A DNA stretch of 64,000 nucleotides. Source: Octopus vulgaris. Lineage: Eukaryota. The stretch spans positions 31,682,001 through 31,746,000 of the forward strand of contig OX597823.1 in the NCBI GenBank assembly GCA_951406725.2, written 5' to 3'. Below, piece by piece: positions 19,730 through 46,012 of the stretch. A model generated the notes under the pieces. That model worked only from the letters and a program-made list of their open reading frames with translations, did not search any database and was not told the DNA's origin. Numbering within the stretch: the stretch's first letter is position 1; each line of letters starts with the position of its first letter. A program made the position numbers and the translations under genes.

Positions 19730-20200
19730 AAAGGAAGGCAAGAAATAAATACAAGATAGCCTGACTTTGGAAGATGAAAAAGGTGAAGATAGTGCCAATT
19801 ATTTACATTTTTTACATTTGACGAATATTAGTCCTCATCTTGTTTGTTGTAAATGTTTCAGCTGATATACCCTCCAGCCTTTATCAGGTGTCTTGGGGAA
19901 ATTTCAAACCTGGGTTCTCGTTCCTAAGGTATTTTTCAATGCTGTTGTTATTATTATTATTATTATTATTCAGGTAACTGCCTGGAATCTTGGGGTTAGT
20001 AGACCATGCTCTTAACCACTATGTCATATGCCTGTGGGCATATAGAACAGTGCCAATTATCGTTGGAGCTTTCAGGACAGTATAAAAAGTTATTGAGAGG
20101 AACATAAAGGAAATAGGAACAGAGTGCCCAGTTGAACTGTGGCAAAAAGTTTGCCTCCTTGGCACAGCCACAATCACCAGGAAAGTATTAGGAAGTTGCA
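19730..20200 (+). mobile_element. R4/Dong-like non-LTR element, restriction-like endonuclease C-terminus, split by the 19803-20048 insertion
   Basis: Removing the insert and one TSD restores IA*LWKMKKVKIVPIIVGAFRTV*KVIERNIKEIGTECPVELWQKVCLLGTATITRKVL. This matches the LW..VPIIVGALG..LQK..LLGTA.I.R.VL pattern. Confidence 0.8.
19803..20048 (-). mobile_element. tRNA-headed, hammerhead-bearing module (copy 2), stand-alone insertion with 12-bp TSD
   Basis: The reverse complement aligns end to end with 42649-42900, with the B-box deleted between ATTCC repeats. Flanked by AGTGCCAATTAT at 19791-19802 and 20049-20060. Confidence 0.88.
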
Positions 20201-39924: not shown

Positions 39925-40093
39925 CGACAGGTTTTTTCCAGTTTCCGTCTACCAAATCCACTCACAAGGCTTTAGTCGGCACGAGGGTATAGTAGAAGAC
40001 ATTTGCTCAAGGTGCCATGCCATGCAGTGGGACTGAACCCGGAACCATGTGGTTGGTAAGCAAGCTACTTACCACACAGCTACTCCTGCACCT
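39710..40093 (-). mobile_element. SINE family A, full length
   Basis: Reverse-complement match to the consensus of the other copies. Confidence 0.92.
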
Positions 40094-40380
40094 AATTTTA
40101 TTAAAACTATTACCATATTTGATGACATAGACACAGGGGCAATTTCAGCAGTACATATTCACAATATCGAAAAAAAAAAAGTTAGGTGTGTGTGTGTGCG
40201 TGCATGTGTGAATTAATGCTTACAGGAGTTCCAACTGCATAGAGGGCATCAGGTTACATTTTTGATACTTTTGTAAAATAAGAGCACCTTATATGCCATT
40301 AATTACTGTAATTGAAATTCTATACCAATTAATGGCTGCATCATTAAATGTTTCTATTTCTATGACTTATACTATACACT

Positions 40381-41765
40381 TTCAAACTGCTGGATCAGGT
40401 GATGAAGGTCAGAAAGAGGGTCATAGACCATCTCATTAGGGAGAGAGGCTGCTTAGATGAGATGCAGTTTGGTTTTGTTCCAGGTAGAAGCACCACTGAT
40501 GCCATATTCCTGATTCAACAACTGCAGGAGAAATACCTAGCTAAAGATAAACCCCTCTATTTAGCTCTCATGGACTTGGGAGAAAGCCTTTGACAGGGTT
40601 CCCCGATCCCTTATCTGGTGGGCGATGCAGAAACTGAAGATTGACAAATGGATAATAAGGGCTGTACAGGCCCTATACAGAGAGGCTGTTAGTAAGGTTA
40701 GGATTGGCAATGAATATAGTGAAGAATTCCGGGTAGAAGTAGGGGTCCACCAAGGTTCAGCCCTCAGTCCCCATTTATTCATCATAGTCCTCCAGGAAAT
40801 AACAGAGGAATTCAAGACGGGTTGCCCCTGGGAGCTCCTCTATGCTGATGACCTGTTCATAGCAGAATCACTACCAGAACTAGAAAAGAAATTTTGGATG
40901 TGGAAGCTAGGTTTAGAATCAAAATGCTTTAGAGTCAATGTAGCAAAGACCAAAGTTATAGTAAGTAGGAAGGCGAACTCATCACACACCCCTTCAGGTA
41001 GGTGGCCCTGCTTGATCTGTAGAAAGGGTGTAGGTAGAAACTCCATAAGATGTACCCAGTGTAAGCTATGGATGCATAGGAGGTGCAGCAATATCAAAGG
41101 AAAATTAACCAAGAAGATAGCTTTCGTGTGCAGCAGATGCACAGAAAACAGATTCCATCACACTCCAGGGGAAGAAACTAGAAGTAGTTGATAGTTTCCG
41201 CTACCTAGGTGACCAAGTTAGTAGTGGAGATGGATGCTCAGAGAGTGTCACCACTAGAATACAAATAGCCTGGGCAAAGTTTAGAGAGCTTCTACCCCTA
41301 CTGGTAACAAAGGGTCTCTCACTCAGGGTGAAAGGTAGATTGTATGATGCATGTGTGTGAACAGCCATGCTTTACGATAGTGAAACATGGGCTGTGACTG
41401 CAAAGGACATGCGTAGGCTTGAAAGAAATGAAGCTAGCATGATCCGCTGGATGTGTAATGTCAGTGTGCACACACGACAGAGTGTAAGCACCCTAAAAGA
41501 AATGCTGGACATAAGAAGCATCGGATGTGGCATGCAAGAGAGACGTTTGCGCTGGTATAGTCATGTACTACAGATGGATGAGGAGAGATGTGTGAAGATA
41601 GCCACTCTCAAACAGTTGAAGGAATCCGGGATAGAGGTAGACCCAAGAAGACATGGGATGAGGTGGTCAAGCATGACCTTCTAACGTTGGGCCTCACAGA
41701 GGCAATGACGAAAGACCTAGATCTCTGGAGATATGCTGTGACTGCAAAGACCCGACAAATAACAT
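40381..41765 (+). pseudogene. Disrupted reverse transcriptase ORF2 of the RTE LINE, with an internal C4HC3 (PHD-like) finger
   Basis: ORFs 40399-40593, 40625-41191 and 41367-41684 are consecutive pieces broken by frameshifts and stops. Finger ligands: CLIC, CTQC, HRRC, CSRC. Confidence 0.92.
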
Positions 41766-42230
41766 GAGTTCATGGCTGTTTCCTGCACCAGCTTCACATA
41801 GCAGCCCCAGCCCATCCAAAGTACCTTGGATCACAGGATGGCCTGCTGTGCTTGAGGAGAACTATTGAGTACATCAACATCAAAATAAAAATCAAATGGA
41901 AATTGTAGTTGTGATACCTTTGCTGGTGGCACGTAAAAAGCATCATCTGAACATGGCCGATGCCAGCGCCGCCTTGACTAGCTTCCATGCCGGTGGCACG
42001 TAAAAAGCACCAACCAATCGTGGCCGTTGCCAGCCTCCCCAGGCACCTGTGCCAGTGGCACATAAAAAGCACCCACTACACTCCCGGAGTGGTTGGCGTT
42101 AGGAAGGGCATCCAGCTATAGAAACACCGTCAGATCAGGCTGGAGCCTTGTGCAGCCTCCTGGTTTCCCAGACCCCGGTCAAACCATCCAACCCATGCCA
42201 GCATGGAAAACGGATGTTAAATGATAATGA
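40381..42230 (+). mobile_element. 5'-truncated RTE-clade LINE (RT domain, C-terminus, 3' UTR, short GAT/AAT tail)
   Basis: Frameshifted ORFs give the RT motifs QFGFVPGRSTTDAIF, DL/EKAFDRVPR, GVHQGSALSPHLF, LLYADDL, VNVAKTK and FRYLG. RTE-type C-terminal motifs follow (AMLYDSETW, RRLRWYSHV). The 3' UTR ends in CATGGAAAACGGATGTTAAATGATAATGA. Confidence 0.95.
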
Positions 42231-42362
42231 CTTTGAAATTTTAAAACATCTTAGTACAGTAGTCCCTCTCTATATCATGATTCATCAATCACAGTTTATT
42301 ATTTAAGCTTACATTGATTCTTCCATGGTGTTGTTTTGCATTTATGATAACATAAATACATA

Positions 42363-42626
42363 AGAGCAGAGGAACATCACAAAGCTGTGACACGAGGAGA
42401 TATTGATAAATTGAGTATAGCTGATCATGTATGGAAAAATAGAGACCATGTCCCCCTGTGAGATAAAGTTAAAATAATAGACAGAGAACACCACTGGAAA
42501 ATACAAAAATTAAAAGAAGCAGCACATATGCTAGGACACAACAACCTCCTAAGCAGACTGAGTGCAGATATGAGCAGCATATGGGAACTGGTATTAAGGA
42601 AAGAGAGGAAAATATTAGATTTATAA
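42363..42626 (+). pseudogene. Penelope-like element GIY-YIG endonuclease, C-terminal part (Penelope/Poseidon-like)
   Basis: Manual translation: RAEEHHKAVTRGDIDKLSIADHVWKNRDHVPL*DKVKIIDREHHWKIQKLKEAAHMLGHNNLLSRLSADMSSIWELVLRKERKILDL*. This fits the R..EH / S.IA.H.W / H...W..V.I...E..W...KEA.H / W..L pattern of PLE endonucleases. One TGA (42459-42461) lies at a conserved Trp position. Not listed in the ORF track. Confidence 0.85.
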
Positions 42627-42648
42627 GCCCTAAAATTCACTCCATAAT

Positions 42649-42900
42649 TGCCCACGGGCATATGGCATAGTGTTTAAGAGCGTGGGGGCTCCTAACCTCA
42701 AGATTTCGAGTTCAATTCCAGACAGTGACTTGAATAATAATAATAATGATAATAACAACATGGAAAAATACCTTAGGAATGAGAACCCAGGTTTGAAATT
42801 TCTCCAAGACACCTGAAGAAGGGTGGAGAGTATATTAGCCGAAATGTGTTAACAACAAACAAGATGAGGACAAATATCCGTCAAGTGTAAATAATGTAAA
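42649..42900 (+). mobile_element. tRNA-headed, hammerhead-bearing module (copy 1), directly 3' of the PLE endonuclease
   Basis: A-box TGGCATAGTGT (42663-42673), anticodon-like loop CT-CCT-AA and B-box GAGTTCAATTCC (42708-42719). Then an (AAT)n spacer and ACAC-CTGAAGA-A-GGGTG..TAGCC-GAAA-TGTGT (42809-42849). Confidence 0.85.
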
Positions 42901-43193
42901 TATATACAAATTATGAAAAATAATAAAAAAATATACAGTACAGTACTGTTTCTTTCTACTTTGCAGATTTTAACCTATCGTGGGGAGTTTTGAAACATAA
43001 CACCTGCGATAGTTAAGGGATTAATGTACTTTCCATCTTTACTGTATTCTTATTAGTAATACCTGAGACTTTAATCCTTAATGCTTGAACACCAATGAGT
43101 TCATATCAATGTCCTTATTTTGAAACTTGGCCTTTGGATTTCTCACCTCCAAAAAACAGCACCTGTGAGAAAACCTTTTACATGCTCAGAATT

Positions 43194-43625
43194 ATCATCA
43201 TCATCATTTAACGTCCATTGTCCATGCTGGCATGGGTTGGACAGTTTAACCAGGGCTGGCAAGCTGGAAGGCTGCACCAAACTCCAGTCTGATTTGGCAT
43301 GGTTTCTGCAGCTGGCTGCCCTTCCTAACGACAACCACCCCGAGAGTATAATGAGTGCTTTTATGTGTCAATGGCACAGGTGCCATTTGTGTGACATTGG
43401 TATCTGCCACGACTGTGATTTTGTTCTGCTTGATGGGTCTTCTTCTCAAGCACAACATAATGTCAAAGGTCTCAGTCATTGCTTCCGTGAAGCCCAACAC
43501 TCAAAAGGAACTCAGCCACTTTGCCTCCCTCAGGCCCAACCCTTGAAAGGGAACTCAACCACTTTGCCTCCCTCAGGCCCAATGCTTGAAAGGAACTCAG
43601 CCACTTCACTTCCCTCAGGCCCAAA
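43194..43625 (-). mobile_element. RTE-derived non-autonomous element with three 42-43 bp tandem units at its 5' end
   Basis: The tail matches 42070-42230. The units CCCAAC..GAACTCAGCCACTTTGCCTCCCTCAGG at 43493-43624 adjoin sequence homologous to 41680-41720. Confidence 0.8.
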
Positions 43626-44783: not shown

Positions 44784-44821
<38 letters not shown>

Positions 44822-44824
<3 letters not shown>

Positions 44825-45195
44825 TGTAGGAGTGGCTGTGTGGTAAGTAGCTTGCTTACGAACCACATGGTTCCGGGTTCAGTCCCACTGTGTGGTACCT
44901 TGGGTAAGTGTCTTCTACTATAGCCTCGGGCCGACCAAAGCCTTATGAGTCGATTTTGTAGACAGAAACTGAAAGAAGCCTGTTGTATATATGTGTGTCT
45001 GTGTTTGTCCCCCACCAACATCGCTTGACAACCAATGCTGGTGTGTTTACGACCCCCATAACTTAGCAGTTCGGTAAAAGAAATCGATAGAATACATACT
45101 AGGCTTACAAAGAATAAGTCCTGGGGTCGATTTGCTCGACTAAAGGTGGTGCCCAGCATGGCCGCAGTCAAATGACTGAAACAAGTAAAAGAGTA
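44822..45195 (+). mobile_element. SINE family A, full length
   Basis: GGAGTGGCTGTGTGGTAAG..GGTTCAGTCCC..CCTTGGGTAAGTG..GACTGAAACAAGTAAAAGAG, with TA tracts on both sides. Confidence 0.93.
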
Positions 45196-45607: not shown

Positions 45608-46012
45608 CAACATCATTTTAACGTCCTGTTTTCCAGGCCAGGATGGGTCAGATGAAATTCGTTGGGGCAGATTTTCAATGGCCAGATGCCCCTTCTTGTT
45701 GCCAATGCTCAGCAGTTTCCAAGCAAGTTAATATTCCCTGTGACCAGGCATGTTTTCCATGGAAGGCACCTCTGCTTATATGGCAGTGGCATTTGTCTAC
45801 AATTACCACATAAAAGCAGGACAAGGAGACACATGCACATTCATATCTATATGTGTGAGTGTGTGTGATGAGCTTCTTTCAGTTTCCTTCTTCGAAATCC
45901 ACTCACAAGACTTTGGTTGGCCTGCGGTTATAGCAGAAGATGCCACATGGCAGGACTGAACCTACAACCATATGTTTGGGAAGCAGACTTCTTTAACTAC
46001 ACAGCCATGCCT
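45608..46012 (-). mobile_element. SINE A head + RTE-tail-like 3' module (chimeric type)
   Basis: A 5' half at 45865-46012. The module at 45608-45830 ends in GGACGTTAAAATGATG on the minus strand. Confidence 0.7.

Follow-up and report, generated by a model that had tools for sequence, protein, structure and literature searches.

The block at 42363-42896 in the window (the whole 64,000-nt stretch of Octopus vulgaris DNA that was analysed) is a single 5'-truncated insertion of a Penelope-like element (PLE) of the Penelope/Poseidon family, lodged within a TA-flanked MITE. In this family the pseudo-LTR (pLTR) permanently carries a tRNA(Arg)-derived head, at which RNA polymerase III (Pol III) likely starts the transcription of short pLTR RNAs as well as that of the full 2.9-kb coding RNA, a reading to which we give a probability of roughly 0.65. 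Support for the structure of the element is good, whereas the mechanism by Pol III is inferred.

We observed that one 10-bp duplication with a single mismatch encloses the whole block, and that none surrounds the head alone. The host MITE, of about 230 bp, exists in uninterrupted form at other loci: its left part was matched at 12 of 14, and in about eight of these it adjoins the right part. The sequence-only reading of this DNA had proposed a GIY-YIG C-terminus ending at a TAA, a tRNA-like head about 25 nt beyond it, and then an (AAT)n run and a hammerhead-like core, the whole forming one interruption of a MITE. This layout was confirmed in each respect (Table 1), the endonuclease being identified by way of the family consensus. 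The ORF fragment contains one in-frame TGA and stops at TAA 42624-42626. The head begins 23 nt later with a 6-nt leader and the 5'-terminal hairpin GCCC-AC-GGGC from 42650, followed by tRNA-Arg(ACG)-like sequence with an A box at 42663-42673 and a B box at 42710-42719. Position 42650, the putative start of Pol III transcription, is +1 in the pLTR numbering used throughout.

Table 1. Coordinates of the block, of its host MITE and of the second family member in the window.
Feature	Position	Strand	Basis or remark
Host MITE, left part, TA-flanked, with short terminal inverted repeat	42257..42352	+	Flanks rejoin at other loci
Left copy of the target-site duplication, 10 bp, differing from the right copy at 1 position	42353..42362	+	Window sequence
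PLE ORF C-terminus, 5'-truncated: second half of GIY-YIG endonuclease, ~aa 752-838 of 838-aa consensus	42363..42626	+	Alignment to family consensus
Spacer from stop codon to head, 23 nt	42627..42649	+	3' end ATAATT repeats the start of the AAT run across the head
tRNA-derived head	42650..42730	+	Consensus head aligned to own-genome tRNA genes; site where 5' ends accumulate
(AAT)n run of variable length, often hit by other elements	42733..42762	+	Window and family copies
ATG that opens the 838-aa ORF wherever the pLTR precedes the ORF; +128, 5' of hammerhead	42779..42781	+	Kept in ~96% of ~310 copies
Minimal type I hammerhead motif	42808..42851	+	Consensus stems and core; architecture as in the available part of PMC4209133
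pLTR 3' part, stopping at the short (+250) end class; the other end class of the family is +290	42852..42896	+	End-class mapping
Target-site duplication, right copy	42897..42906	+	Window sequence
Host MITE, right part	42907..43026	+	Flanks rejoin at other loci
Second family member in the window: solo pLTR starting at head	19803..20048	-	Perfect 12-bp duplication 19791-19802 / 20049-20060

The window copy has decayed, with a G>A change in the B box and a hammerhead that is broken by a 3-nt deletion at the cleavage site. Taken alone, it gave no tRNA with ARAGORN, no tRNA or hammerhead with Rfam and no GIY-YIG domain with Pfam, and its ORF fragment matched the Anolis PLE protein P0079 weakly (24% over 84 aa, E=2e-4). 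The identity of the block is settled because it is 92% identical to a family consensus that encodes an intact 838-aa RT and GIY-YIG protein. The solo pLTR on the minus strand of the window shows a fold-back base and an 8-nt inverted tail end.

Across the genome, the ORF normally continues into the head. Among the first 40, taken in order of position, of 822 matches to an 18-mer from the 3' end of the ORF, 38 run into the head at the same junction, and 28 of the 29 best matches show the endonuclease frame upstream and the same head downstream. These results support the head as a constitutive, captured module of the pseudo-LTR, as the sequence-only reading had supposed. The two exceptions among the 40 copies are one with a deletion reaching into the hammerhead and one (L501) that lacks exactly the head. 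L501 retains the ORF end, the spacer, the AAT run, the hammerhead and the tail, and is either a pre-capture relic or the product of a deletion between the ATAAT repeats flanking the head. The presence of ATAAT on both sides suggests that the head entered the pLTR long ago by inserting into its AAT run.

The consensus head has perfect A and B boxes and no cloverleaf fold, and neither the consensus nor a near-consensus copy gave a tRNA or a hammerhead with ARAGORN and Rfam. Because the fold is too decayed, the identity of the head rests on alignment to tRNA genes of the same genome. In this comparison of three isotypes, the consensus head matched tRNA-Arg(ACG) at 50 of 74 positions, tRNA-Asn at 46 of 75 and tRNA-Thr at 42 of 74, and shuffled sequences scored far lower. 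At another locus (L440, G000:C2:211892500-211901500), at least 14 tRNA-Arg(ACG/TCG) genes and pseudogenes are clustered, some of them spaced ~206 bp apart; the head likely derives from this class of tRNA-Arg genes. A tRNA-layout pattern had 788 matches, and most of the first 100 listed belong to another abundant repeat of tRNA origin that retains an intact T-arm (e.g. L309-L316). The pair L332/L333 was considered as a variant head and rejected, as it is one duplicated 5'-truncated copy. Contigs assembled from sequencing runs with several different organism labels also carry sequence of this family, the ORF-to-head junction among it.

A consensus of the full element was built from 21 long loci of the source genome (2.8 Gb), and thereby provided the full-length PLE that the sequence-only reading had asked to see assembled. 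The consensus unit of 2,959 nt carries an intact ORF (838 aa, 2,517 nt) encoding an RT with a GIY-YIG endonuclease at the C-terminus. The RT domain was recognized by Pfam in one copy (RVT_1, E=6.5e-8), and the endonuclease was assigned by alignment and motifs, the Pfam GIY-YIG model matching 2 of 20 homologs and not the family protein. Searches with the 838-aa protein returned 368 homologs at E<=1e-30, including an Anolis protein at 36%; the closest homologs are 55-66% identical, and metagenome loci are more distant (29-52%). By every feature checked the family belongs to the EN+ Penelope-like elements, its probable clade placement following from domain order and similarity to the Anolis protein. 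A search with the Anolis protein for a second, head-less sister PLE family gave only the present family (30 of 30 loci).

The pLTR repeat occurs both 5' and 3' of the ORF and overlaps the ORF start. In the 5' unit, the head is followed by the AAT run, the ATG at +128, the hammerhead and then the tail, which is in frame with the ORF. The sequence-only reading had missed that the pLTR is the 5' leader and supplies the start codon of the full element, as well as the absence of T4 from the ORF that is described below. The hammerhead extends from +157 to +202 and would be cut at +197. Contrary to the doubt that the family consensus might lack CTGANGA, GAAA and NUH, the consensus contains CUGAUGA, GAAA and a GUU site and its core is intact. 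Stem I has 5 bp, stem II has 6 bp with an unpaired base at its 5' end, and stem III is the palindromic ACGU. The motif has the features of the minimal type I hammerhead of PLE pLTRs and is a predicted ribozyme; in the available part of PMC4209133, the PLE hammerhead is described as having a short stem I, a long stem II, an unpaired base and a minimal stem III. Among long copies 10 of 52 retain an intact core, among short copies 15 of 62. In another organism, a homolog of 55% identity (P0004) bears the same hammerhead-derived peptide at its N-terminus, which places the ribozyme within the ORF of relatives as well. Identity to the consensus reaches 95-98.5% in the best pLTR copies and ~94% in the best long copies, and the family looks inactive.

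A run of four T (T4) is a Pol III terminator. We checked the prediction that a long RNA started by Pol III at the head would need a T4-free ORF, and found no T4 either in the ORF or in the consensus unit as a whole, with T3 runs numbering 14. Synonymous shuffles expect 2.9 T4 (P=0.028-0.032). In 141 kb of copies there are 66 T4, that is 0.47/kb, below the 0.65/kb expected from decay alone, and any one T4 site is shared by at most 6 of 61 or 5 of 23 copies. By comparison, an RTE ORF of equal T content from the same genome, used as a Pol II control, has 3 T4 in 1,722 nt, and RTE copies have 1.87/kb. In other organisms, 28 T-matched PLE-related loci average 1.93 T4/kb, and 70 related loci of at least 1 kb show a median of 3.4 T4/kb, with zero T4 in three short ones and in none above 1.5 kb. 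Allowing for the spread among the T-matched relatives, the probability of finding zero T4 is ~0.056. G4 runs are also missing from the ORF (expected 1.0). A looser measure of T-rich clusters (4 vs 10.4, P=0.005) was set aside, as the RTE control is depleted too (3 vs 6.3). The test is thus of moderate strength. The T4-free ORF suggests that the autonomous element is transcribed by Pol III, and we hold full-length transcription by this polymerase to be about as likely as not. Such a Pol III RNA, uncapped and with a leader of 127 nt, would have to be translated in an unusual way. Ribozyme-linked cap-independent initiation is reported for viruses in the available portion of PMC13725137, where it is also cited for HDV-like ribozymes of retrotransposons, but in the present family a hammerhead cut would remove the first ATG, the next one being codon 104.

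Most copies of the family are short. Exact 18-mer matches genome-wide number 9,163 for the pLTR versus 822 for the 3' end of the ORF, and about nine in ten genomic copies are the short repeat alone. The head motif has 2,365 matches genome-wide (some on both strands), 478 of them with the PLE spacer in front. We classified the first 100 pLTR matches ordered by position, a census of the first 28 Mb of a single chromosome that is biased towards copies of lower divergence and includes a few segmental duplicates. The ORF is upstream in 6 of these copies and 61 start in the head (35 of them at +1 to +10). Another 28 begin within the AAT run or are interrupted there, and the remaining 5 begin in the tail. 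The comparison of ORF-preceded with head-starting copies that the sequence-only reading had recommended thus came out at 6 vs 35. At junctions between the tail and the ORF, none of the 81 classified (of 88) runs upstream of the head, most being truncated earlier.

Many copies at L353-L439 end 25-400 nt inside the 5' part of the ORF, and not at +250 or +290, which suggests additional, weaker RT start sites downstream. In several copies (L062, L076, L083, L114 and L144) the AAT run has received 3' fragments of a LINE that encodes a restriction-like endonuclease, and other repeats land there too; by its motif we take this LINE to be of R4/Dong type. These insertions suggest that the pLTR offers target sites to microsatellite-targeting elements.

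The insertion footprint of the short copies is that of a PLE. A TSD of at least 10 nt was found for 27 of 72 units versus 4 of 212 shuffled pairs, and short copies are flanked by 10-13-bp duplications. The expectation that short copies could be moved by the PLE machinery is therefore borne out by a large population of ~250-290-bp repeats that start at the head and bear this footprint. Furthermore, an inverted partner is present in 60 of 100 pLTR copies. Of 51 head-to-head pairs, 44 could be classed, and in 40 of these one end lies at ~+290 and the other at ~+250 (expected share 0.50, P=6e-9). The asymmetric pairs match the two internal sites at which reverse transcription of the anole PLE PAc starts on its RNA in vitro (PMC11167929), together with the tail that PLEs are known to carry on one end only (available portion of PMC8557442). 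These 40 pairs provide genomic support for two-site, two-strand priming by PLE proteins.

In the mechanism that we propose, a copy of a tRNA gene together with its leader would once have inserted into the AAT run of the pLTR and brought in an internal A/B-box promoter, after which each pLTR copy could yield RNA from +1. The PLE protein would nick both target strands ~10-13 bp apart, and reverse transcription would begin inside the RNA, at ~+250 for one strand and ~+290 for the other, as it does for the anole PLE in vitro. An RT start in the first pLTR, or on a short RNA, would give a SINE-like solo pLTR, and an RT start in the last pLTR would give ORF-containing, mostly 5'-truncated copies such as 42363-42896. 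The end of the cDNA would fold back on the terminal hairpin and then join the partner cDNA, and the ORF would have been purged of oligo-T terminators because Pol III must read through it. The hammerhead is the ordinary PLE motif and is probably dispensable for the short copies; a role for its cleavage in the short RNA is not indicated, because short copies (~250-292 bp) keep both sides of the cut.

We consider it unlikely that a true SINE lineage has emerged from the pLTR, with source genes of its own and the PLE protein as its motor, the autonomous PLE being still transcribed by Pol II and the head merely lying in its UTR. Such a lineage would fit the excess of short over ORF-bearing copies (~10:1), their start at the head and their TSDs, as well as their slightly lower divergence (median 3.7% vs 4.6% for long copies, P=0.04, the long set being sampled with bias). 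Any solo pLTR could moreover serve as a source, since it has the promoter and, at a median of 89 nt, a first flanking T4. A distinct PLE-derived SINE lineage was also the proposal of the sequence-only reading, and this part of it was not supported: a single consensus fits 63 short and 54 ORF-attached pLTRs, a small sample of a family with tens of thousands of copies, and the sole site that differs at P<0.01 is a CpG. Because no diagnostic base splits the two groups, we recognize no separate SINE lineage, and the short copies are, as judged from their sequences, solo pLTRs that behave like a SINE and have no lineage of their own. A lineage of this kind would also leave unexplained both the T4-free ORF and the ends of the ORF-leading pLTRs, of which, with all loci pooled, 5 of the 6 that reach the head stop there, the sixth being tandem. 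With six such copies, the position at which the long RNA starts is not firmly set.

Alternatively, the head could be passive: Pol II would transcribe from upstream or tandem copies, the hairpin and the tRNA-like fold would halt reverse transcription, and the short copies would be truncations. Heavy 5' truncation and some tandem arrangement are known features of PLEs, and consistent with this account the cloverleaf fold is gone and 5' ends range from +1 to +10 and deeper into the head. Furthermore, one tandem copy (L173, 1217-2036) runs from an ORF end through a full pLTR into an ORF start, indicating that some template RNA began upstream of a head. We nevertheless find this account quite improbable. 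The hairpin is a weak stem of 4-5 bp, and stalling should leave ends at its 3' foot, yet 11 of the 35 head-stopping copies include +1 itself, 13 of the 35 are extended by a fold-back around the +1 hairpin, and the PLE spacer beyond -1 is absent from all 35. Moreover, 35 of the 41 copies that reach the head stop there (~85% within 10 nt), whereas 5' ends upstream of the head are scattered over hundreds of bases. The perfect A and B boxes of the consensus also speak against a passive head, which would leave the T4-free ORF unexplained.

An amplification of the retrozyme type, in which the hammerhead would cleave multimeric transcripts into monomers or circles that are then copied by the PLE protein, is highly improbable. 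It has a precedent in non-LTR retrozymes, which derive from PLE pLTRs according to the available part of bioRxiv 10.64898/2026.07.22.740005, and the octopus motif is a minimal, dimer-type hammerhead. The copies, however, run from the head to +250 or +290, span the cut at +197 and are not permuted there, and those in the census occur as dispersed singles or as head-to-head pairs, in keeping with the inverted partner seen in 60 of 100. We do not accept a clustering of 5' ends at the site of hammerhead cleavage, since the ends at +199 to +203 fall on a palindrome. Finally, a chance neighbour, that is an unrelated tRNA SINE beside a PLE fragment, has next to no standing and is refuted by the junction common to 38 of 40 ORF ends and by the single TSD around the block.

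An element with a captured Pol III promoter in its pLTR, the reading that we favour, is in most respects an ordinary EN+ PLE. Like Penelope of D. virilis and the Poseidon element PAc of the anole (available portions of PMC11167929, PMC8557442 and PMC4209133), it has a single ORF for RT plus a GIY-YIG endonuclease at the C-terminus, a pLTR that overlaps the ORF start, a minimal hammerhead, inverted 5' partners, a 30-40-bp tail on one end and heavy 5' truncation; as in anole PAc (PMC11167929), the start codon lies upstream of the hammerhead cut. In contrast to the elements described in these portions, the octopus pLTR opens with a tRNA-derived A/B-box head, solo pLTRs starting from this head make up most copies, and the ORF is T4-free. 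The same sources describe the pLTR promoters of Penelope and Chlamys-3 as overlapping a 5'-UTR intron. Metagenome relatives of the PLE showed no pair of A and B boxes within 450 nt past the ORF in a simple pattern test.

The octopus SINEs OK, OR1 and OR2 were reportedly described by Ohshima and Okada in 1994; OR1, presumably of tRNA-Arg origin, is a candidate match for the short form, and OR2 has been described as a CORE SINE. The short form may already be catalogued under a SINE name or in Repbase or Dfam. According to the available portion of SINEBase (PMC3531059), a SINE is shorter than 700 bp, has a tRNA, 5S or 7SL head, is transcribed by Pol III and depends on a LINE partner, and autonomous retrotransposons use Pol II. 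The short octopus form (250-292 bp, with a tRNA-derived head and A and B boxes) resembles the tRNA-derived SINEs of that source, OK, OR1 and OR2 included, also in its TSDs and very high copy number. It differs in that its partner is a PLE and not a LINE, the 3' part and the insertion footprint being those of the PLE, in its internal simple repeat and the PLE tail at its 3' end, and in forming no independent lineage, with no sequence identity apart from the autonomous element. The available octopus repeat literature lists SINE and Penelope classes with no link between them. In our literature search no tRNA-headed or Pol III-transcribed PLE was described, and SINE or repeat catalogues may hold the short form. 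These observations suggest that part of the SINE annotation in octopus genomes is PLE-derived.

The Schistosoma repeat SM-alpha is transcribed by Pol III. It is called SINE-like in the available part of PMC8490949, and, like non-LTR retrozymes (PMC7229834; bioRxiv 2026.07.22.740005) and MRC1 of Chlamydomonas (PMC8557442), it resembles the octopus repeat in being a short hammerhead-bearing or pLTR-like unit thought, in the available texts, to be moved by PLE proteins. Retrozymes are described there as tandem arrays processed by the ribozyme, whereas the octopus unit is bounded by the tRNA head and the RT start sites, and its head is part of an autonomous element; the words 'tRNA' and 'promoter' are absent from the available text on retrozymes in bioRxiv 2026.07.22.740005. 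Helenus, Ajax and Cassandra likewise contain tRNA or 5S sequences inside retroelement terminal repeats (available part of PMC10886601). They are non-autonomous LTR elements, unlike the present autonomous PLE with its intact consensus ORF.

The family blurs both SINEBase rules, Pol II for autonomous retrotransposons and Pol III with a LINE partner for SINEs: the SINE-like unit is a terminal repeat of its own autonomous partner, the motor is a PLE instead of a LINE, and there is sequence evidence for Pol III reading a 2.5-kb ORF. It also offers a direct test of SINE birth. The farthest-reading version of this proposal is one on which we are evenly divided: an autonomous PLE would be transcribed end to end by Pol III, having captured a tRNA-Arg gene as its promoter and lost all oligo-T from its 2.5-kb ORF, its uncapped RNA would be translated, and an internal RT start would yield SINE-like solo repeats ten times over the ORF-bearing copies. 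If true, end-to-end reading by Pol III would amount to a new, LINE-independent route of SINE origin.

Other repeats lie around the block in the window. A 5'-truncated and frameshifted RTE-type LINE, the one that served as the Pol II control above, occupies 40366-41770 on the plus strand, and is followed by a 3' region with short repeated motifs that extends to ~42230. An inverted RTE-type 3' region on the minus strand at 43198-43620 is 78-86% identical to 42065-42230, and three 43-bp repeats lie at 43479-43624. A further family of short repeats, which is probably another SINE, has several copies, at 40017-40101, 44814-44901 and 45872-45993.
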